Source: Kiritimatiellia bacterium (GTDB lineage Bacteria > Verrucomicrobiota > Kiritimatiellia > JAAZAB01). Taken from it: DNA of 64,000 nt. This document shows, one piece after another, positions 1-10,185 of this stretch; the first letter of the stretch is position 1; every line of letters starts with the position of its first letter. The notes under the pieces were generated by a model, which saw only the letters and a list, made by a program, of their open reading frames with translations, had not been told where the DNA came from and did no database searches. Where the stretch lies: the NCBI GenBank assembly GCA_040767085.1, contig JAXGPF010000003.1:224001-288000 (forward strand), read 5' to 3'. Made by a program: the position numbers and the translations under genes.

Positions 1-44
1 CGCCCTTTTTGTTTGGGGTGCACGGCAACGCAGGAGCGTTTGTC

Positions 45-278
45 GTGAACACAAAAAGACCGCATCAAAGACAGAATCAGGCCTTTCTATCAGAAAAGGC
101 GCATCAGGGATTCAACTGGAATCCTCTTCCCAGCAGGACCGGTTGGATAACGGCCTTAATCAGCCCTCTTATCAACAACCGCGCCTGTCCCGCTTCAGAT
201 ACACAACCGCGAATCGCTCACGCCTTGGGTGTCCACGCTTCTATCCTGTTCGTTTTAAAACAGGAGGTGGCGCAATGA
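45..278 (+). CDS. Cro/XRE-like HTH protein (possibly degenerate)
   Basis: AGGAG at 32-36, GTG at 45; C-terminus ISPLINNRACPASDTQPRIAHALGVHASILF fits the XRE pattern; stop overlaps the next ATG (ATGA). Confidence 0.55.
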   Translation: MNTKRPHQRQNQAFLSEKAHQGFNWNPLPSRTGWITALISPLINNRACPASDTQPRIAHALGVHASILFVLKQEVAQ

Positions 279-628
279 AAACTGATCCGCTGACTCTTGA
301 TTATTTCATAGGTCGATACACTTCCGCCCCCTATAGCCGACAACAAGCGGCGCTTGCCGCCTCGATCCGAGTCTTAGATGAAGTCCCGGAAAGCAACACA
401 AATGAGCCGCTTTTAACACTGGCGGAATTAACACAAGCTCTAGGTTTTAAACATTACACAGCTCTGCATAAGCTCAAAATTCAAAGAGCAGGTCAAGCTT
501 GGGCTGGCGGTCGCCTTCGATACCGTCGAAGTGCGGCGGAGGAATATTTGAAATCCCCTGCCTGCATGGAAATCCGGGAAGAACTCAGACGTAAACGCCG
601 GAAACTGGAGAAAGAGCGGTCGTTATGA
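275..628 (+). CDS. Excisionase-like HTH DNA-binding protein
   Basis: AGGAGG RBS, ATG at 275; PLLTLAELTQALG...GRLRYRRSAAEEYL is a Xis-type motif; translationally coupled on both sides. Confidence 0.7.
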   Translation: MKTDPLTLDYFIGRYTSAPYSRQQAALAASIRVLDEVPESNTNEPLLTLAELTQALGFKHYTALHKLKIQRAGQAWAGGRLRYRRSAAEEYLKSPACMEIREELRRKRRKLEKERSL

Positions 629-1566
629 ATGCACTTCAACGACGATTTCAAGACGCGCTGCGCTCCTTGCCTCAACCAGGCGGTAACGGATATCATACGA
701 GTATTCTGGGAGTGGCCAATCTGGGTGCCATGGCCGGTGTGTCTGCGGATGAACTGAAAGCCCTGATCCGTCAGTATACTCCGCCAGGCGGGCGCCGCGT
801 TCCCGATCAGGAAATCCAGGATGCGGTAATGAAAGCTGTGTCTGAATGCGGCCGGTGTGTAAATATTAAATCCTGGAGCCCAAGGACTTCGACTCAAGAC
901 CGGAATGTTGACGCAGAAGGTTTTATGTCAACATGTCTGGCCAATGCGGAGGGGATCGGGGAAGGCGATATTCATGAGGCCTCGCCCGTGAAAATTGAGT
1001 GGCCTCCCGAGAATGACGCGCAGGAGTTGTTGTCATGGCTTTACTATCCCAGAGATATTCTTTTCATTGGCGATAGGTTTGGTACACAGGTCAAATATGC
1101 TTATGAGTGGTTGGCTGATTTCAAGGCTGGGCACACCATCCCTCCACATATCATTCCCAATCCGCTATCAGGCGCATTTGCGATGACCAAGGATGGTCGG
1201 CCCAGTAAAAGGGCGGATGCATGTGTGAAATCCTTCCGGTTTGCCGTGGCCGAGTTTGACCATCTAAGCCGGGAGGACCAGTTGCGTTTCTGGTGGTCAG
1301 TGAATTTGCCGGTATGTGCATTGATTGACAGTGGCGGTAAATCGTTGCATGCCTGGATCAAGATTACAGGTGTAAATTCGACGGATACCTGGACCTGCCT
1401 GGTCGAAGAAAAGCTTTTTAGGCTTTATTTGGTGCCGCTGGGGTGCGATTCAGCCTGCCGCAATGAGGCACGGCTATCTCGTATGCCGGGGCATTTTCGA
1501 TCTGAACGGGGGCGTTTTCAGCGGGTCTTGTATTTGTCTCCAGAAGGCCGGAGGATTGGCAAATGA
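625..1566 (+). CDS. Primase (AEP/RepB'-like catalytic domain with N-terminal helical PriCT-like region)
   Basis: AVAEFD, LIDSGGKSLHAWI and RLSRMPG motifs; directly upstream of a helicase. Confidence 0.75.
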   Translation: MNALQRRFQDALRSLPQPGGNGYHTSILGVANLGAMAGVSADELKALIRQYTPPGGRRVPDQEIQDAVMKAVSECGRCVNIKSWSPRTSTQDRNVDAEGFMSTCLANAEGIGEGDIHEASPVKIEWPPENDAQELLSWLYYPRDILFIGDRFGTQVKYAYEWLADFKAGHTIPPHIIPNPLSGAFAMTKDGRPSKRADACVKSFRFAVAEFDHLSREDQLRFWWSVNLPVCALIDSGGKSLHAWIKITGVNSTDTWTCLVEEKLFRLYLVPLGCDSACRNEARLSRMPGHFRSERGRFQRVLYLSPEGRRIGK

Positions 1567-1673
1567 ATGCTTTGGAGTGCCTGGAGGCCCAAGTTGCGGA
1601 TTTTAAGATAACACAGCTTAATGGTCGATCTTTAGCTGATTACGCTAAGATGGAGGTTGATGCTGGGGCGACG
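1563..1673 (+). pseudogene. 5' fragment (37 codons) of RepA/AAA_25-type helicase interrupted by a transposon
   Basis: ATG overlaps the primase stop; MNALECLE...VDAGAT ends exactly at the transposon's terminal TGA and rejoins 5416 onward in frame. Confidence 0.85.
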
Positions 1674-1859
1674 TGAGCAGGATCGGAGTAATTGATGTTT
1701 TTCCGGGTTGTTTGAGTCACGCTAAGTGATGGACGTGGGCAAGCGTCCATCAGATAAAGTGCTTCTTTTTGCTCCCCTTGATTTTTGAGCATGCGGTAGC
1801 CTGCTGCGTCAGCAGCGGGGGCGCTGCCTCCTTGCAGCGTGCCGTGGGCGATTTCGTTT

Positions 1860-2231
1860 TTATGGCAGCGACGCTTTTAAGACTCGGTCGAGGTCGGCTT
1901 GGATTGGTTGGAGCAGTTCTATATCCATGAATCCGTCTTGCACCTGTTTTTGCGCCTTGACCAGGGCTTCCCGGAAGAATGCCGCGGCGAGCGCCGGGTG
2001 ACCTTTTTTTTCGTAGACCATTCCCAGCCCGTTAAATCCGTCGGGCACATCGGGTTGCGCGAGCATAAGTTTGTTGAAAATTTCCTCGGCGTCGTTAAGC
2101 TTGCCGGCGTCAATCAGATCGAGTCCCTGATTCCACCATTCGATGTCGTCTTCTTCCTCGAGTGGCCGGATTTGCGGGTATTGTTTTCTGATATTTGCGA
2201 TATATTCCGCGATATTTATGGGAGCACGCAT
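1860..2231 (-). CDS. TPR-repeat passenger protein (alternative starts 2237, 2258)
   Basis: WWNQGLDLIDAGKLNDAEEIFNKLMLAQPDVPDGFNGLGMVYEKKGHPALAAAFFREAL is a TPR pair. Confidence 0.75.
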   Translation of the reverse strand: MRAPINIAEYIANIRKQYPQIRPLEEEDDIEWWNQGLDLIDAGKLNDAEEIFNKLMLAQPDVPDGFNGLGMVYEKKGHPALAAAFFREALVKAQKQVQDGFMDIELLQPIQADLDRVLKASLP

Positions 2232-2786
2232 ATGCATAAGGTACTCAACAGCGGTCATTTTATCAAGTATTTAGAGCGATTTGATGGGAAGATTGCGCAG
2301 GCCGCCAAGGCGGAGATGTGCCGGTATTGCGGCGGCAAGCTGCATTGCGGCGATTATGCGCGCAAGCCGCGCGGTGTTGTCGGGTGGGATAAACGCCACA
2401 GTTTTAACTGTGCGCGGTGTCGGCGGCGCAAGACGCCGCCCAGCGTGCGTTTTCTTGGGCGCCGGGTTTATGCGGGCGTGGTGGTGGCGCTGGTGAGCGC
2501 GCTGATGCATGGTCTGAATGCTGGGCGCGCGCAGGTATTGGTTGAAAAACTGGGCATTGACCGGCGAACATTAAAGCGTTGGCTTGCATGGTGGCGCGCG
2601 GTGTTTGTGACGAGCGGGTTTTGGAAGGGCGCTCGGGCGAGTTTTATGCCACAGGTTGAGGCTACCCGGATGCCGTTGAGTTTATTGGAGGCGTTTGGCG
2701 CGGAGCGGCGCCGCGGGATGTTCAAGCTGTTACTTTTTATTGCGCCGATTACCACTGGTTCGTGTGAAATGGCGGTGGTTATGTGA
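2232..2786 (+). CDS. Zn-ribbon/HTH transposon accessory protein (DUF6431-like)
   Basis: CRYCGGKLH...FNCARCRRRKTPPSVRFLGRRVY cysteine pairs and HTH-like KLGIDRRTLKRWLAWW; ATG at 2232 is in frame with track ORF 1899-2786. Confidence 0.75.
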   Translation: MHKVLNSGHFIKYLERFDGKIAQAAKAEMCRYCGGKLHCGDYARKPRGVVGWDKRHSFNCARCRRRKTPPSVRFLGRRVYAGVVVALVSALMHGLNAGRAQVLVEKLGIDRRTLKRWLAWWRAVFVTSGFWKGARASFMPQVEATRMPLSLLEAFGAERRRGMFKLLLFIAPITTGSCEMAVVM

Positions 2787-2922
2787 TGGTTGTTTTTCTC
2801 CCGCAGAGCATGCCGCTGGAGCTTTGCGCGAGGGCGTTATACCTTGGGCGGCATTGCAACGGAATGGTCGGCGGAGCGGAATGGATTTCGCTTGGCGGCG
2901 GGCCAGACGGGAGGGGTGCGCA

Positions 2923-4419
2923 ATGCCAAAACAGGATGCGGATTATAGCGCGGGTGGCGGTGGTTCCGGGGGATGCGCGCGGTGGGCGCATTTTCGTTTC
3001 AGCGTAATTGGCCCATTATTGGCGGCGCCGCCGGGGCGGGGCGATTTGCAGGCGGAGATTGCGCTTCTGGCCGGCAAGCAATGGCGGCATCCGGTGACGG
3101 GGCAATGGGTGCGGTTTGGGTCTTCCACGATTGAGCGGTGGTATTACCGGGCTTTACATGGGGCCAAAGACCCGGTCGGCGTGTTGACGCGCAAGGTGCG
3201 CAACGATCATGGCGCCCATCGCAGTTTGAGCTTTGAGTTGCGCAATGCAATAAGCGTCCAGCACCAACAACACCCGGAGTGGAGTTGCCAACTGCATTAC
3301 GACAACCTGGCGGTGCGCGTGGCGGAGGATTCGCGACTGGGAGCGTTACCGTCTTATGTGTCGGTGCGCCGTTATATGCGTGCCGCGGGGATGTTCAAGC
3401 GCCGCCGTTTGGGCGGGCGCCGGGATACCGCCGGCGCCCGGGCCGCCGAAGCGCGGTTTGCGGCTTTAGAGGTGCGCTCCTACGAAAGCGAGTACGTCAA
3501 TGCGCTATGGCATTTGGACTTTCATCAGGGATCAATCCCGGTCTTGACCAAGCCCGGCGAGTGGTTGCGGCCGCAATTACTTGGAGTGTTGGACGATCAT
3601 TCCCGCATGTGCTGCCACTTGCAGTGGTACCTGGCGGAAACCGCCGAGAACCTGACGCATGGGTTAAGCCAAGCCATGCAAAAATGCGGTCTGCCAAGGG
3701 CGCTGATGACGGACAACGGCGGCGCCATGACGGCCGACGAAACCACGCAAGGACTCGCGCGTTTAGGTGTTTTACACGAGAAGACGCTGCCCTATAGCGC
3801 CTACCAGAACGGCAAACAGGAATCCTTCTGGGGGCAAATAGAAGGGCGGTTGCTGCCCATGCTCGGCGGCTGCCCTGATTTGACGCTGGCACAGCTCAAC
3901 CAGGCGACACAGGCCTGGGTCGAAATGGAATATAACCGCAAGGTGCATTCCGCGACCGCCCGATCGCCGGTTGATCGTTTTGTCAATGTCAAAGACGTGG
4001 GCAGAACTTGCCCATCCGCGGAAGTCTTGCGCCAGGCATTCACCGCCGGATGTTCGCGAACGCAACGCTTTAGTGATGGCACCATTAGCATTGACGGCGT
4101 ACGCTTCGAGGTGCCTTCCCGCTACCGCCATATCAAACGCATCGGCGTGCGATACGCCGCATGGGACTTGTCTTATGTTCATCTGGCCGACGCGCGTAGC
4201 GATCAAATCTTGACGCGGCTATTTCCGCAAGACAAACACAAAAACGCCGACGGCCACCGCCGCCAAAAGGAAACCATAGGCGACCATCCCGATCCAACAT
4301 CGCCGCCGCCGCGGTCAACCGGCATGGCGCCACTGTTGCGCAAATTCATCGCGGATTATGCCGCCACCGGGCTGCCGCCAGCTTATCTGCCAAAGGATGA
4401 ACTCAAAATACAGGAGTAA
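2923..4419 (+). CDS. DDE (rve/Mu-like) transposase, 498 aa
   Basis: GGAGGGG RBS; catalytic WHLDFH, LMTDNGG, GKQESFW; N-terminal HTH; Mu-transposase-like C-terminal DGTISIDGVRFEVP. Confidence 0.92.
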   Translation: MPKQDADYSAGGGGSGGCARWAHFRFSVIGPLLAAPPGRGDLQAEIALLAGKQWRHPVTGQWVRFGSSTIERWYYRALHGAKDPVGVLTRKVRNDHGAHRSLSFELRNAISVQHQQHPEWSCQLHYDNLAVRVAEDSRLGALPSYVSVRRYMRAAGMFKRRRLGGRRDTAGARAAEARFAALEVRSYESEYVNALWHLDFHQGSIPVLTKPGEWLRPQLLGVLDDHSRMCCHLQWYLAETAENLTHGLSQAMQKCGLPRALMTDNGGAMTADETTQGLARLGVLHEKTLPYSAYQNGKQESFWGQIEGRLLPMLGGCPDLTLAQLNQATQAWVEMEYNRKVHSATARSPVDRFVNVKDVGRTCPSAEVLRQAFTAGCSRTQRFSDGTISIDGVRFEVPSRYRHIKRIGVRYAAWDLSYVHLADARSDQILTRLFPQDKHKNADGHRRQKETIGDHPDPTSPPPRSTGMAPLLRKFIADYAATGLPPAYLPKDELKIQE

Positions 4420-4428
4420 TCAAACATC

Positions 4429-5259
4429 ATGAGTAAAAAACTACTTGCGCTATACAGCCTGAAGTACAACCCGTTCTGCCAGGAAGTGCCGACCGCCGCA
4501 CTATTCAGGACGCCGGCCGTCGAACATTTTTGCTGGCGGATTGAAAATCAGGTCGGCGAAGGCGGCTTCGCGTTGGTTACCGGCTCGCCCGGATCCGGCA
4601 AAAGCGTGGCGCTGCGTATTCTGGCCGACCGGCTGCGCGGCATCCCGGATATCACCGTCGGCATCATCACCCGACCACAAGCATCCGTGGCCGACTTCTA
4701 CCGCGAAATGGGCGATCTGTTCGCAACTACGCTGACGCCAAGCAACCGTTGGGGCGGCGCCAAGGCGTTGCGTCAAAAATGGCTGACCCATATTGACGCC
4801 TCGCTCTACCGCCCCGTCCTCCTCATCGATGAAGCCCAACTCATGACGCCGGGAACACTGGGTGAACTGCGCATGCTGGCAAGCGCCGAACTCGACTCGC
4901 GTAGCATCCTCACCGTGGTGCTCGCCGGGGATGAAAGACTGGTTAACAAACTGCGCAGCGACGACCTGTTGCCAATGGCCAGCCGTATCCGCTGCCGGCT
5001 GCCCTGTGACCCCGCCACCCCTCAACAACTACGCGAATGCCTCAACCATCAGCTAAAACAGGCCGGCAACACCAGATTGCTTTCAGACCCCGTAATCGCC
5101 GCGCTTTGCGAACATGCCGCCGGAAATTACCGGTCTTTAATGAACATGGCCAACGACCTCTTGGCCGCCGCATTACAACGTGAACTCGACCAAATTGATG
5201 AAAAACTCTTCTTCGATGTGTTCAATATCCGTGCCATATCAACGCAAAAATCCCAATAA
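4429..5259 (+). CDS. ExeA-family AAA ATPase (transposition helper)
   Basis: YSLKYNPF N-terminus, Walker A GSPGSGKS, Walker B LLIDEAQ. Confidence 0.9.
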   Translation: MSKKLLALYSLKYNPFCQEVPTAALFRTPAVEHFCWRIENQVGEGGFALVTGSPGSGKSVALRILADRLRGIPDITVGIITRPQASVADFYREMGDLFATTLTPSNRWGGAKALRQKWLTHIDASLYRPVLLIDEAQLMTPGTLGELRMLASAELDSRSILTVVLAGDERLVNKLRSDDLLPMASRIRCRLPCDPATPQQLRECLNHQLKQAGNTRLLSDPVIAALCEHAAGNYRSLMNMANDLLAAALQRELDQIDEKLFFDVFNIRAISTQKSQ

Positions 5260-5415
5260 AGCAACAACACTTAAACACGACAAGTAAAGACGGGGCGCCT
5301 ACACGTCACGCCCAATTAAAAAGCGAATAGGCTCTCATTAAACAAGCCAGGCCAAACACATATCCATCAATTATCACGACAAATCATCCATCATTTTTTG
5401 TGATCGCTCTCAACG

Positions 5416-6423
5416 CTGTTGGGGAACCGGTTCCTGTGCCGAGGCGGTGGACTTTTGTTTGTTGGACCTTCCGGCATCGGTAAATCATCCGCGTCCGTGC
5501 AGCAGGATATCCTCTGGGCGCTTGGACGTCCCGCATTCGGGATTCAACCGGCAAGGCCGTTGAAAATCATTACGGTCCAAGCGGAAAATGACGACGGTGA
5601 CTTAGCAGAAATGGCCAGGGGCGTGATGCATGGTTTAGGCTTGAGCGACCATGAGCGTTCCAACGTTCATAAAAACACCTTGTATATTACCGAGCGGTTT
5701 AGAATAGGCGACAAGTTCATTAGTCTGCTTGGCGAGATTTTAGCAAACCGGCCGGTTGATCTTCTCCGCATTGATCCGCTACAATCATTTCTTGGCGGGG
5801 ATGTTTCAATGGTTGATGTCGTGACATCTTTTGTGCAAGCCGGCTTGAACCCTCTTTTGCAACAGTACAACTTTGGGTGCATTATTTGCCACCATACGCC
5901 CAAGACGCATCGCAGGGATACAACGGCGTGGAAGGCTTCGGATTGGCAGTATGCCGGTGCTGGATCGGCTGTTTTGACTAATTGGGCACGTGCGATTATG
6001 GTTGTCGATCCATGCGAGGGCGACCCCGGGTTATTCCGATTCATTGCCGCTAAACGTGGGGGGCGAATTGGCTGGACTGATAAACACGGTGCAGCAGCGA
6101 ACATCAGGCATTTTAAACACGCCCGGGAATCAGGTGTAATATTTTGGGAAGGCGCCACGGATGACGAGATTCAGTCCGGTACGCAAAAAGGTCTGTCAGA
6201 AAATGATATCCTTGCTTTGCTGCCGGAGAGCGAGTCGGTCTCGAAAACCGTTTTTATTTATGATTTGAATCAAAAGCACGGCGTGGGGATAAAGAAGGTA
6301 ACTTCACTCGTCAAGAAAATGCTGGATAAGAAAAAGATATTTCAGTCTTCGAGACCGCGGTCCGGCACGCGACCGGAAATGATGCTTTCCCGTTTTTCTG
6401 TCGGTGATAATGTGCCGGAATAA
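5416..6423 (+). pseudogene. 3' fragment of RepA/AAA_25-type replicative helicase (restored protein 372 aa)
   Basis: Walker A GPSGIGKS, Walker B LLRIDPL, ICHHTPK; lacks its native start. Confidence 0.85.
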
Positions 6424-6464
6424 GATCTGGCTGTCGTCTTTCCGGTACGAGCGGGGAGATAGAT

Positions 6465-6490
6465 ACGCGCCCCCCCTTTAAGGGGCGCGT
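6465..6490. other. GC-rich palindrome just after the helicase (candidate origin element)
   Basis: ACGCGCCCC (6465-6473) / GGGGCGCGT (6482-6490) perfect 9-bp stem. Confidence 0.4.
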
Positions 6491-7078
6491 GCATCCATCT
6501 CGGGTTGTATGCGCTTTTGAACAAAATTCTGTCCGGAGTAAATCCATTTACTATTTTGGCGGGTATGGTGCGCGCGTGCCCCCCCCGCCCCCCATTTTGC
6601 CGGCTGATGGTGTAGCGCACGGCACAAAATTGATAGGTGGCTTTTCCCCGCTTTGAATGAAATTGACTCAGATACAGCGTGAAGCACCTTCGCGTTTTGA
6701 CGCTTGGTTAGATGCACGGCGACGGCGGAGGCACTCCTGGCGCCAGGAGCGGGCGTCTGCCGCCCTCATAGACACGTCAAGGCATTGTGGTCCTGCCGGG
6801 CCTCAAGACGCCTCTAAGATGGCGCTACGTGCCGTACGCCGGCCAACAGTTTCATCGCCACAGTCATCGATCAGTGCATTTGTCAGTATTGCTCAGCTTG
6901 CAACAAGGTCGCATAATCAACCAAGTGTCTAATTCGCCAAAGTCTTAACCATTTTAAATTGAACATGTTGCAGAAGACGTCAGGCCCGCGTAAATTATCA
7001 TCAAAATCGTTGAAATTTTAATGTCTTGAATATCAACTGTTTATCGAATCAGGTGGAGCGCCCTCCCTATTGGCTGCA

Positions 7079-7406
7079 ACCTGAATCCGTGACGGGATTT
7101 TATGTTGTCAAGATAATGTGCGTACAAACAACAATTTATGGCATTTTAAAATATCACCAAAAACACACGGCGCTGTTTGGCGGAAAAGACCGCCCTGCGG
7201 GTGAGGCCATTATGCCGCATCTGCTTTGTTGCGAAGGATTCGCGGTATATTTATACAGCTTCATCCTTCGCGCCTCGCATCTGCGGCATACTGACGTCAT
7301 CACGGATTCAGGTGTAACGCCAGCGGCCGGCGTTAATGCCGGCCGCTCCGGATCACCTGGCGTCGTTTAATACCCAAAGATTTCCGCGGCACCACCATGT
7401 TACACC
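7079..7406. ncRNA. Candidate large structured RNA or ssDNA structure
   Basis: Perfect inverted pairs: 7079-7092/7300-7313 (14 bp), 7211-7219/7282-7290, 7231-7239/7263-7271, 7322-7331/7338-7347, 7311-7318/7399-7406. Confidence 0.45.
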
Positions 7407-7666
7407 CGGCTGGCTCCAGCACTACTGCTGTCTCGCCCCTTTTGTCGCTCGTTTCCCGCCTCCGAACCGATTTGCCGGCATGCAAGCCCCATACTTCGAT
7501 GGCACCCTGCGCAGACACTCACTCTTTTTATCTATATCTACATTTTCACTTTAAGGCGTCTGGATAGCAGGCGCTGTACTGGTGACAGATTCTGATGGTC
7601 TATAAGCTGACAACGCTGAAGTTTCAGGGTGGCTAAAAAAAAGACGCGCGCCGGCGAACAAGGATT

Positions 7667-7981
7667 TTACGCCCTCCGCATCATCCATCTTGCAAGTTCG
7701 CCTTCAGTGATCCGGGCGTGTGCTCCTGCGTAGGGATAGAATGCTTTCAGCGCACCAGTGGAAAGCGCCCTATACAAAATGGTACGCGACAGGCCTGTCC
7801 GCTTGGCCGCTGTAGAGATATTCAAGGCTCGGCCTTCATTTACTTCTTTTGGTGGTTGTCCGCGGCGGATCGCTTCCACGGCGGCAATCTGGGCAGCATC
7901 TTCCGGCAAGGTCAGAATCCATGTTATAAGATTCAGCTTGCGGGTCTCCGGGGTTAATGGATTGATTTCGCTGCTGGTCAT
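7667..7981 (-). CDS. Excisionase-like HTH protein
   Basis: AAGGAG RBS; ALNISTAAKRTGLSRTILYRALSTGALKA...RITEGELARW. Confidence 0.75.
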   Translation of the reverse strand: MTSSEINPLTPETRKLNLITWILTLPEDAAQIAAVEAIRRGQPPKEVNEGRALNISTAAKRTGLSRTILYRALSTGALKAFYPYAGAHARITEGELARWMMRRA

Positions 7982-8056
7982 TGTATGTCTCCTTGTGCAT
8001 TATTTCCCTTCTAGTCGTCTGGCAGGACTTGATCAACCCAATTAGAGAATTAAATA

Positions 8057-8118
8057 TTGACAACACCTAACCATACGGTTTAATTTGCACAAAAAGACGT
8101 TTAAAGTCCTTTTACGCA
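8057..8118 (+). promoter_or_regulatory. abiE promoter with imperfect inverted-repeat operator
   Basis: TTGACA 8057-8062, TTTAAT 8079-8084; IR TGCACAAAAAGAC (8086-8098) / GTCCTTTTACGCA (8106-8118), 10/13 match. Confidence 0.5.
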
Positions 8119-8119
8119 T

Positions 8120-8908
8120 ATGAAACCGGTGGGCATAGTATATACCAGAAGCTTGCTGGCTGCAGGAAAATACACGTTTAGCCGCTCCGAGGCGGCCAAG
8201 GCGCTGAACCGACGCGGCGACCCCTTGAACAAGATTCTTGGGCGATTGAAGCACACCGGCTGGGTATTTCCGATAGGGAGCGATTTCTTTACGGTTGTGG
8301 ACCCTCAGAACAAAAGCCTGGGGCATATCCCGCCGGCATGGTTTATTGATGCATGGGCGCAGTTTAAAGGGATCGAGTATTACGTGGCGGGCTTGAGCGC
8401 CGCGGAACTTCATGGCGCGGCGCATCAACGGCCGCAGGTATTTCAAGTGGTTGTCAACCGCAGTATGCGTTCCTTCCGCTCGCCTTCCCTCTCGGTCCAA
8501 TTACTCTATCGCCAGAAGATAACTTCAGCGATGTGGGAACGTAAGAAAGTGCCCACCGGATATTTTCGCGTAAGCACTCCAGAGTTGACGGCATACGATC
8601 TTCTTTCATTGCGCAAGGCATGTCCGTCGCTTGATCATGCGGCAACGGTTTATGTCGAACTGGGAGAAGCCATGCGCGCCCGGCGGGTGGCAGAGCTATG
8701 CGAGGCCGGGTTTGAAACGCCGGTCCTGCAACGCCTGGGCTGGATGCTTGACCGTGCGGGTTGGAGCAAATTGACGGAGGGCTTGGCGCAAGGACTGAGC
8801 CGGCGCCGCCGCGACTGGGTACATTTGGCCACGCAACTGCCGGCGCATGGCAATCGCAATGCTAAATGGCGGATCATCGAAAATACGGATATCCAACCGG
8901 ATATCTAA
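8120..8908 (+). CDS. Type IV TA AbiEi-family antitoxin
   Basis: YYVAGLSAAELHGAAHQRPQVFQV and RVSTPELTAYDLL motifs, N-terminal wHTH. Confidence 0.88.
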   Translation: MKPVGIVYTRSLLAAGKYTFSRSEAAKALNRRGDPLNKILGRLKHTGWVFPIGSDFFTVVDPQNKSLGHIPPAWFIDAWAQFKGIEYYVAGLSAAELHGAAHQRPQVFQVVVNRSMRSFRSPSLSVQLLYRQKITSAMWERKKVPTGYFRVSTPELTAYDLLSLRKACPSLDHAATVYVELGEAMRARRVAELCEAGFETPVLQRLGWMLDRAGWSKLTEGLAQGLSRRRRDWVHLATQLPAHGNRNAKWRIIENTDIQPDI

Positions 8909-8969
8909 AAATGAGAGTAAATTTCAAAAAACGTTTTGAAAGAATTCAGCAGTCAGGAGTCAGAATTTA

Positions 8970-9074
8970 GATAATTTTAACAGCGATCTTGCAGGGCTTC
9001 TGCCTGGCGACTTTCGGTACGCACAGGCTGATGGTTTTGAGGTTCTGGAACGTGAAATCATTCCGCGCCTCTAA
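8970..9074 (+). pseudogene. C-terminal remnant of AbiEii nucleotidyltransferase toxin
   Basis: DNFNSDLAGLLPGDFRYAQADGFEVLEREIIPRL* resembles AbiEii C-termini, sits in the expected position and has no start codon. Confidence 0.6.
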
Positions 9075-9233
9075 CCAGTTTAGGGTACAATTAGGGGAAT
9101 TTATAGCCCGTAAACGCCCGAAATTGCCCGGTGTGGCGCAGACGGTATAATACAGCATAACTTGCTTAATATAAACATATTACAATGCAGTTGGCGGGCA
9201 CTTTAGAGGTGGGCGAACAAGCTGCTGGTTCGA

Positions 9234-9277
9234 CTTCCAAGCTGGCTGCGAGGGTTCGATTCCCTTCACCCGCTCCA
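9234..9277 (+). other. attR: 3' half of tRNA-Gly(TCC)
   Basis: CTTCCAA anticodon loop, GCTGG, T-arm GAGGG-TTCGATT-CCCTT, CACCCGC-T-CCA; no D-arm or 5' anticodon strand. Arm-site-like TAGGG repeats near 9080-9097. Confidence 0.85.
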
Positions 9278-9371
9278 CCCTTGCTCCCTCTGATTTGCGT
9301 CAAGTCGCGGTTCCTGCTGTGCCCAGGCAAATCACGAGCTGATCCGATTGACCGGAATGACGAAGCGGGGA

Positions 9372-9655
9372 TGGTTGGCCGGGGATGATCTTGTTGTCCG
9401 AAATTTTTGTGTTGTCAACAAGTTGTATCCTGAACATGCTCAAGAGCCAGACCGAGGCGCAAGGCAAGGCCTTTAAAGAGACCGGCGGGTTAAGCGAGCG
9501 GCTCATGGCCAGGCGCATCGAGGCGCGGGAAAAACGATGCCCCCGTCGCCCGCCTGCCCTTTGTGCGGCCAGCCCATACGCCGGCGCAAGTCGGCCAAAG
9601 GAGATTTCTGGAGGTGCTCTGTATTCCCCGCGTGCAAATGAACCAGGCCGGCATG
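9372..9655 (+). pseudogene. Four-helix-bundle suffix domain protein with topoisomerase-type Zn ribbon, frameshifted with premature stop
   Basis: MLKSQTEAQGKAFKETGGLSERLMARRIEAR, then in a shifted frame CPLCGQPIRRRKSAKGDFWRCSVFPACK*TRPA. Confidence 0.7.
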
Positions 9656-10185
9656 AAAGCAATGGAGAGAACGAACTGCCAGCGCCCCGGGCAGCAGCAC
9701 AATGCTTACGTTCGGAGGCTACATTCCTCCATAAGCCGCAATGCGTCAGGGCTTGATGGTGACGGGCTCGCTGCGGCCGGCCGCCCCATAGCCCTCGGAG
9801 AGAAAAATCCGGAAATTGTACTGGTCGCCCGATCCGCAAGGTCTATCGGCTGCCGGCCAAAGTTGACGACGCCCTTGTCAGCACCCGCCACCAGGTGGAA
9901 CGAACCGCTACTGGTTCCGGTAATGCTCACCTCGCAACGACTGTCCGGCAGGGAGATGTAATTGATAAGAAATCGCTTTTCAGGGTGACCGGGCACACAA
10001 ACCCGCCCGCCGGTGTGTGACCGTACTCATGCAGACAGGCTGACACCGGACTGCAACGCACTTTGATGAAGAAAAATATGCCAAGACGTAATCATACATA
10101 ATGTCAAGTTCGGACTAAAATATTACGAACTAAAAAACAGCTTCAGGCTCATCCATTGCGGGTGGGACTTTTTTTATCTGCCGGC

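Follow-up and report, generated by a model that had tools for sequence, protein, structure and literature searches.

Organization of the Element and of the Interrupted Gene

The window analysed in this work, i.e., the whole stretch of 64,000 nucleotides taken from contig JAXGPF010000003.1 of a Kiritimatiellia bacterium (assembly GCA_040767085.1, positions 224,001 to 288,000 of the forward strand), harbors a transposon of 3739 base pairs (bp) located at positions 1674–5412. The direct reading of the sequence discloses TG...CA termini, the element opening with TGAG at 1674 and closing with ...CTCA at 5412, bordered by the left (1671–1673) and the right (5413–5415) copies of an ACG target-site duplication. 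According to the open reading frames (ORFs) and to the family scans, four genes are embedded in it: a gene on the minus strand coding for a TPR protein (1860–2258), followed on the plus strand by those coding for a Zn-ribbon plus helix-turn-helix (HTH) protein of 184 amino acids (2232–2786), a DDE transposase of the rve type of 498 amino acids (2923–4419), and an AAA+ ATPase of 276 amino acids (4429–5259). No further ORF with a TnsA or a resolvase domain was found within 1674–5412 in the ORF list and the Pfam scan.

The element is inserted within a protein-coding gene. The 5' piece of this gene consists of 37 codons (1563–1673, plus strand) and translates as M...DAGAT, whereas the 3' piece (5416–6423, plus strand) codes for an AAA_25 P-loop protein (E = 7.5e-14, the match starting from position 29 of the profile), its frame resuming at 5416 as LLGNRF...GPSGIGKS (ORF 5419–6423). 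When the element and one ACG are removed, a single open frame is restored, with ...DAGAT joining LLGNRF..., as it had been pointed out in a previous reading of this DNA made from the sequence alone (the sequence-only reading); therefore, one P-loop gene has been cleanly split.

Copies, Mobility, and Target Sites

The genome to which the window belongs contains five copies of the element. Four of them are 100% identical across exactly bases 1–3739, and the 3-bp direct repeats bordering them all differ from one another (GAC, GTC, ACG in the window, and TTC); the chance of finding four such repeats is about (1/64)^4. The same borders are drawn by the metagenome contigs obtained from public runs of four different studies (an anaerobic digester, a landfill, a wastewater, and a sludge RNA library): in 4/4 runs, the contigs match from 1674 onwards and/or up to 5412, with unrelated flanks beyond. 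Both the exact TG...CA ends and the ACG duplication proposed in the sequence-only reading are thus borne out by the identical copies, by their differing repeats, and by the contig breaks, and the order of the four genes proposed there agrees with the ORFs and the family scans.

In the public metagenome runs, the contigs carrying the element have a depth several-fold above that of the window flanks. Neither an empty-site joint nor an end-to-end circle junction was found in the metagenome contigs, which drop rare forms and are thus uninformative in this respect. The contigs of the RNA library cover parts of the element at a depth of 2–3; DNA carry-over is possible, so that this was not taken as expression.

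The fifth copy (L005, at C27:263410–267126 of genome G000) shares 97% identity with the others, with about 73 gap positions, many of which are single-base gaps, and it is decayed, all its four genes being split over several frames. One of its tip bases is altered, its flanks read GAC and GAA, and it adjoins remnants of an IS3-like gene (rve, rve_3, and HTH_21 matches).

A homologue of the transposase was found in just one of the 40 related genomes searched (62% identity), and in none of the four genomes of the same genus. This distribution suggests that the element was probably acquired recently and then multiplied in the genome of the window. Overall, the element is a complete, autonomous, and recently active transposon with exact ends.

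As for the target sites, three of the four identical copies are inserted within genes (an AAA_25, a CobW, and a flavin-reductase gene), and the remaining one is located in an intergenic region. Since these sites are unrelated, as are the duplicated triplets, the target has no fixed sequence: target choice in this genome occurs without sequence specificity, and the insertions break genes. The element thus explains the disruption of the AAA_25, CobW, and flavin-reductase genes.

Affiliation to the Tn6049-Related Transposons

The search of the transposase against plasmids (tblastn) retrieved the replicons of Cupriavidus metallidurans CH34, where a sequence sharing 53% identity over 93% of the length (E = 2e-142) corresponds to the Tn6049 locus, and Paraburkholderia phytofirmans PsJN (54% identity). 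The Tn6049 locus of CH34 is annotated with a 181-amino-acid ORF ("transposase"), a 479-amino-acid "IS481 family transposase", a 277-amino-acid "AAA family ATPase", and a 71-amino-acid ORF. The Zn-ribbon protein of the window shares 36% identity (E = 5e-27) with the first of these ORFs, and the ATPase shares 57% identity (E = 4e-112) with the Tn6049 ATPase, of which it represents the counterpart (the "gspA/ExeA-like" gene of Tn6049). The order of the three genes (Zn-ribbon, transposase, ATPase) is the same in the two elements, which are also alike in size (3.7 kb in the window and 3.5 kb in Tn6049), in their TG...CA ends, in the asymmetric subterminal repeats of the GATGG type, and in being multi-copy and gene-disrupting. 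Tn6049 differs in that it lacks the TPR gene and has the 71-amino-acid ORF after the ATPase instead, in its tips (TGTG vs. TGAG in the window), and in its duplications of 4–7 bp, compared to 3 bp in 4/4 copies of the genome of the window. On the basis of homology, synteny, and end architecture, the element of the window is to be regarded as a distant Tn6049-related transposon.

Tn6049 was reportedly first described by Van Houdt et al. in 2009. According to the published reports, it is present in 12 copies in CH34, one of which is inserted in pbrU (PMC2864759), and one copy shows imperfect inverted repeats of 12 bp together with a direct repeat of 4 bp (PMC4739549). The module responsible for its transposition "could not be categorized" (PMC6210171), and "a transposon related to Tn6049" exists in Acidithiobacillus ferrooxidans (PMC3414803). 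No mechanistic study and no formal description of the family was found in the literature searched; Van Houdt et al. 2009 and Table S5 of PMC3414803, a list of Tn6049-related transposons, may already tabulate ends, duplications, or relatives. The idea that the element represents an undescribed, distinct type, advanced in the sequence-only reading, is therefore superseded (PMC2864759, PMC6210171, PMC3414803): it is a new member of a named but uncategorised and mechanistically uncharacterised family.

The genes of this family carry different names in different records. The homologue of the Zn-ribbon gene is annotated as "transposase" in Cupriavidus (L006:3317–3862) and as "hypothetical protein" in PsJN (L007:3300–3869), and the ATPase is labeled "AAA family ATPase", "ATP-binding protein", or, in papers, gspA/ExeA; in the records and in one paper (PMC9679502), the family genes have been misread as "IS481 transposase", "general secretion/ExeA ATPase", and "hypothetical protein". 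On Cupriavidus plasmids, three copies of Tn6049 (L094, L090, and L092) interrupt or abut genes for type IV secretion conjugative transfer, a porin, and an oxidoreductase; the papers mention pbrU and a relaxase gene among the insertion sites. A bias of Tn6049 toward plasmids and islands is possible.

Terminal Repeats and Length of the Target-Site Duplication

The left end of the element (1674–1760, plus strand) carries, after the TGAG tip, repeats with a GATGG core at 21 (degenerate), 55, and, inverted, 74; the right end (5330–5412, minus strand), whose TGAG tip is read inwards, carries direct repeats at 21 and 45 from the tip. These repeats presumably represent transposase-binding sites. The same plan can be recognized in elements from distant hosts (Tn6049, i.e., L006, included): at the left end, a TG.G tip and GATGG-type repeats at 21, about 55, and, inverted, about 74 are present in 10/10 elements, the site at about 21 being degenerate in the window and reading GATGC in Tn6049; at the right end, the repeat at 21 is present in 10/10 elements and a second one was called at 45 in 7/10. 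It is known that several sites per end, differing between left and right, are the pattern of Mu and Tn7. The end calls rest on copy-to-copy alignments and on hand-checked ends; the automatic scan for ends and duplications mis-set the ends of Tn6049 and of several other loci.

The length of the duplication is not the same throughout the family. In the clade of the window, 3-bp duplications border the four identical copies of its own genome (4/4) as well as L019 (TTG), L021 (GTC), and L025 (GGG). Among nine independent insertions of Tn6049, seven show duplications of 5, 6, 6, 4, 7, 4, and 4 bp, and two show no clean repeat (L090, 2 bp; L093, none). In other proteobacterial relatives, the automatic scan disclosed duplications of 5 bp (L037 and L071), 7 bp (L038 and L039), 6 bp (L075), and 4 bp (L079). 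The 3-bp duplication is therefore, judging from the loci compared, a trait of the clade rather than a hallmark of the family, and the coexistence of a fixed 3-bp and a variable 4–7-bp duplication within one family provides a concrete starting point for understanding what determines the spacing of the target cuts.

A particular organization can be observed in L007 (3148–6570 of a finished P. phytofirmans PsJN plasmid), where a 24/24 perfect terminal inverted repeat is not accompanied by any flanking duplication; this locus may be an inter-copy recombinant or the outcome of an adjacent deletion. In L020, a different sequence stands where the left end should have its first 42 bp.

Family Size, Gene Core, and Accessory Genes

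This is a large family: over 8000 homologues of the transposase were retrieved at E ≤ 1e-10, most of them on contigs of 2–6 kb, as expected of a repeat, at least 561 loci in one-genome-per-species collections encode a relative (561/599 candidate stretches), and the family of the Zn-ribbon protein includes 2658 cluster representatives at E ≤ 0.001. The gene content was counted in the best 80 related loci, considering for each gene only the assessable ones. The titles of these 80 loci refer to over a dozen phyla, labels that need care because the binning of short repeat contigs is unreliable.

The Zn-ribbon gene is located directly upstream of the transposase gene in 71/71 assessable loci, and the ATPase gene directly downstream of it in 70/70. 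Judging from this conservation, the transposition module is a three-gene core composed of Zn-ribbon, transposase, and ATPase genes. The distribution of the TPR gene (Pfam TPR_2, E = 2.8e-8; 132 amino acids by the longest ORF, even though the start may be the third methionine, at 2231) is completely different: homologues in the same place and orientation are present in 9/80 loci, i.e., in 8/38 assessable ones plus L009. When mapped onto the transposase tree (41/82 rows were not assessable and were excluded), the TPR carriers form three clusters, requiring at least three changes: the window plus a Victivallales element, an alphaproteobacterial clade (7/7 assessable members), and one Piscinibacter element. 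On this pattern, the TPR gene is considered an optional, clade-specific accessory. Other clades have different genes near the right end, such as the 71-amino-acid ORF of Tn6049. The survey of homologues thus goes in part against the sequence-only reading, which named homologues usually lacking the accessory genes or showing other duplication lengths as evidence to the contrary: the TPR gene is mostly missing and the duplications of Tn6049 and of other relatives are 4–7 bp long, whereas the Zn-ribbon gene is a constant companion of the transposase.

At 2229–2237 (CAT ATG CAT), the TPR and Zn-ribbon genes have their start codons back to back, and the two divergent genes abut exactly or overlap by up to 27 bp, depending on the methionine used. 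This arrangement implies that both promoters lie inside the coding sequence of the neighbouring gene.

In the verrucomicrobial relatives (L019–L021, at about 5160–9699, and L025/L026, at 5096–9595), the elements are 4.5 kb long, with about 1.4 kb of extra DNA after the ATPase gene. In L019, the extra DNA contains a gene coding for a 341-amino-acid AAA_25 plus HTH protein, sharing 25% identity over 134 amino acids with the product of the gene interrupted in the window; in L025, it contains an ORF without family.

The Transposase and the ATPase

Three acidic residues of the transposase (D199, D264, and E300) do not vary among the 41 sequences compared and, on the basis of the position of the rve match and of the spacing (65 and 36 residues), are the putative catalytic triad. 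The AlphaFold model (pLDDT 78) comprises N-terminal helical (HTH) DNA-binding domains, an RNase-H-like (rve) core, a beta-barrel (375–435), and a disordered linker, past which a conserved C-terminal tail (466–490) is modelled as a helix. In the Foldseek search, the top match was the full-length ShCAST TnsB (E = 2.4e-18, about 490 columns), followed by IstA (2.8e-14), Tn7 TnsB (2.4e-13), MuA (1.2e-12), and then by retroviral integrases. In agreement with this, the profile of the transposase family matches residues 87–238 of TnsB (E = 4.3e-5), and a weak Mu-transpos_C match was found in 12/41 family members. As for the NCBIfam models, the best match was IS481 (NF033577; E = 3.1e-32), whose 112.2 bits fall below the cut-off of 224, and the scores were below the cut-off of 160 also for IS3 (72.6 bits) and IS21 (NF033546; 36.6 bits). 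The modelled fold suggests that the enzyme belongs to the TnsB/MuA/IstA class.

A frameshift fusion of the Zn-ribbon and transposase genes, resembling the OrfAB of IS3, was considered and dropped: an ORF starting with TTG (2695–4419) does extend over the last part of the Zn-ribbon gene, but it is read in the +1 frame; moreover, the homologues begin at an aligned methionine, and a stretch of 112 bp separates the two genes of Tn6049.

The ATPase is placed by Pfam in AAA_22 (E = 3.4e-19), with a Walker A motif at G52–S59 and a Walker B motif at D134–E135, whose residues are invariant in the family. The TniB model of Pfam gave a weak match (E = 0.095), and the IstB family is not among the Pfam matches listed for this protein. 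When the family profile was compared with the PDB, the best match was MuB (8xvb; E = 3.7e-7), followed by ORC1 (2e-3) and ShCAST TnsC (2.1e-3); hence, the ATPase appears to be MuB/TnsC-like.

Comparison with Known Transposition Systems

The element appears to work like Mu, Tn7/Tn5053, and IS21, yet it belongs to none of the IS21, Tn7, and Mu groups; the pairing of a DDE enzyme with an AAA+ ATPase in a system distinct from these three, which the sequence-only reading had recognized, therefore stands, and the IS481 cut-off was failed as well. With Mu, it shares MuB as the best solved relative of its ATPase family, the match of the MuA core and transpososome to the transposase model, the TG...CA ends, and nearly random targets. 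It differs from Mu in being a 3.7-kb transposon and not a phage, in the extra Zn-ribbon protein, in the weakness of the Mu-transpos_C similarity, and in the length of the duplication, which is 3 bp vs. the 5 bp that are typical of Mu and of Tn7-like/Tn5053 elements. The likeness to the latter concerns the transposase fold, which is closest to the TnsB of ShCAST, the presence of an AAA+ partner, the several transposase sites at ends that are unlike each other, and an apparently obligatory third, small, Zn-containing protein. The differences consist in the absence of TnsA and of a resolvase from the window element, in the lack of detected TniQ homology, in the absence of attachment-site targeting among the copies seen, in an ATPase lying outside the TniB family of Pfam, and in the 3-bp duplication.

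IS21 has the same two-component logic (DDE plus AAA+), and its IstA matches the transposase model; the ends of IS21 elements carry several repeats, and the length of the duplication varies within that family. The element of the window differs from it in its low score with the IS21 model, in the AAA_22-type ATPase, and in the Zn-ribbon gene, which IS21 does not have. Lastly, the rve catalytic core and the TG...CA tips, besides the best NCBIfam match, recall IS481/IS3. IS3 elements produce a 3-bp duplication, and IS481 elements are single-gene insertion sequences of about 1–1.3 kb. In comparison with these two families, below both of whose cut-offs it falls, the transposase of the window is about 150 amino acids longer, with a beta-barrel and a tail; it has two more, apparently obligatory, partner genes, it is not encoded by a frameshift-fused OrfAB, and the element is 3739 bp long, with four genes, three of which are co-conserved.

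The Zn-Ribbon/HTH Protein

The product of the first core gene matches no family at the curated cut-off. Four cysteines (C30, C33, C60, and C63) and several arginines are invariant in 42 sequences, and its model comprises a helix, a Zn ribbon built of two hairpins, a linker modelled with low confidence, and an HTH bundle. Within the family, HTH_23 matches 27/42 members and HTH_28 matches 17/42. The fold matches are weak (E ≥ 0.19, Z ≤ 4.8) and include Zn ribbons of the NudC/RNA-polymerase type and the HTHs of LuxR/GerE, TrpR, and homeodomains; the comparison with the N-terminal HTH of ShCAST TnsB gave a Z of 3.7. The family profile found nothing below E 1.6 among the PDB sequences. The domain DUF6431 (PF20020) was considered and rejected: language-model look-alikes of the protein carry it in 32–74% of members, but the PF20020 model finds nothing at the copies of the element in the genome of the window, the sole match, located elsewhere, having 14.6 bits, which is below the cut-off.

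Since the protein is never separated from the transposase and the ATPase, it can be taken as a core DNA-binding subunit. It might be a partner required for positioning or loading the ATPase on DNA, which would make it analogous to TniQ in function, even though no homology to TniQ can be detected; this proposal is tentative, falling somewhat short of an even chance, and the protein could instead be an end-binding cofactor of assembly or a regulator.

According to the last of these alternatives, the protein would act only as a regulator of the operon or of transposition, remaining outside the transpososome. Such a role would fit the first position of its gene in the operon, an HTH of a common type associated with regulators and transposases (the above-mentioned HTH_23 and HTH_28), and nearest folds, weak as they are (Z 4–5), that belong to the DNA-binding domains of LuxR/GerE, TrpR, and homeodomain proteins. 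It appears unlikely, even though conceivable, in that a presence in 71/71 loci over very divergent lineages and the invariant cysteines and arginines suit a core subunit better.

A different scheme, close to that of the sequence-only reading, makes the element a Tn7/Tn5053-like system, with the Zn-ribbon protein as a putative target selector of the TniQ type and the TPR protein as a putative adaptor. The TnsB-like fold of the transposase, the MuB/TnsC-like ATPase, the several sites per end, and the universal small protein with a Zn site and an HTH can all be read in this way, and it is known that type V-K systems, too, have a small TniQ with a zinc finger. On the other hand, the TniQ model of Pfam matched none of the 42 members of the Zn-ribbon family at E ≤ 1, and no TniQ chain was retrieved in three fold searches, whose matches were weak and whose query model was of middling quality, so that no homology to TniQ was detected, even though a TniQ-like role of the protein is conceivable. 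Moreover, the four copies lie in unrelated sites, three of them breaking genes, hence no safe-site targeting is seen; TnsA is absent, the duplication is of 3 and not 5 bp, and the TPR gene is missing in 30/38 assessable relatives, hence it is no general adaptor. This scheme is consequently judged improbable.

Proposed Mechanism of Transposition

Overall, the data are probably best explained by an autonomous, recently active, Tn6049-related transposon whose three-gene module is composed of a transposase of the TnsB/MuA/IstA type, a MuB/TnsC-like ATPase, and a Zn-ribbon protein. Because the enzyme falls in the TnsB/MuA/IstA class and its partner is MuB-like, a Mu-like model appears as the most economical one. 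According to this model, the transposase would bind and assemble on the asymmetric repeated sites (left 21, 55, and inverted 74; right 21 and 45), nick the DNA at the CA-3' tips, and join the ends to the target DNA with a 3-bp stagger. An oligomer of the ATP-bound ATPase on the target DNA would deliver the target and activate the transposase, probably contacting its conserved C-terminal tail; it is known that both TnsB and MuA contact their partners through their C-termini. Since neither a TnsA-like second nuclease nor a resolvase is present, a copy-type route (replicative, or copy-out/paste-in) seems somewhat more plausible than cut-and-paste.

Some observations weigh against this explanation. 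The steps of the mechanism (binding, cleavage, and roles of the proteins) are all deduced from homology and fold. NCBI labels the Tn6049 enzyme as an "IS481 family transposase", the same family being the best NCBIfam match of the window protein, and a TnsB-like fold does not discriminate against a likeness to IS481/IS3, since neither family has a solved structure. The model of the Zn-ribbon protein is of middling quality (pLDDT 72.5), with weak fold matches throughout (Z < 5). Lastly, the verrucomicrobial L026 shows just an ambiguous 2-bp repeat, and no duplication was found by the automatic scan in 12/20 related loci with family-typical ends; nine of these 12 lie on contigs shorter than 7 kb, where the flanks of a repeat may be mis-joined, and three (L007, L044, and L072) lie on long records and are unexplained.

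The possibility that the element is an ordinary insertion sequence of the IS481 family, with the ATPase, Zn-ribbon, and TPR genes as cargo without a role in transposition, would account for the best NCBIfam match and for the label given to the Tn6049 enzyme by PGAP, the DD(35)E-like spacing and the TG...CA ends being common to IS3 and IS481, but it is very improbable, given the score of 112 bits vs. a cut-off of 224, the ATPase and Zn-ribbon genes that, unlike cargo, stay with the transposase across many phyla, the beta-barrel and tail resembling those of TnsB, MuA, and IstA, and an ATPase whose nearest relative, MuB, is a transposition protein.

Returning to the Tn6049-related transposon with its three-protein module, a broader and more speculative reading, which taken as a whole is less likely to be right than wrong by a considerable degree, can be outlined. 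The Tn6049-related elements might represent a separate and very widespread AAA+-regulated DDE lineage beside Mu, Tn7/Tn5053/Tn552, and IS21, whose obligatory third subunit would be a new Zn-ribbon/HTH protein, taking the part of TniQ in coupling the ATPase to DNA while being unrelated to it; the geometry of target capture would be set by clade (fixed 3-bp vs. loose 4–7 bp), and in some clades the small TPR protein would tune the choice of partner or target.

What is useful beyond this locus is that the core consists of three genes, that the plan of the ends is conserved, that the proteins show affinities to TnsB and MuB, and that the length of the duplication depends on the clade. The recognition of a compact TnsB-like, MuB-like, and Zn-ribbon module allows the correct annotation of a large family, and the three proteins represent a small, tractable system for the control of DDE transposases by AAA+ and small DNA-binding partners.

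Surroundings of the Insertion

The start of the interrupted AAA_25 gene overlaps, through an ATGA, an ORF of 313 amino acids (625–1566) that has no Pfam match. Downstream, a small ORF on the minus strand (7667–7981) shows a segment that, by eye, looks like an HTH. The insertion at 1674–5412 may lie inside an integrated mobile element.

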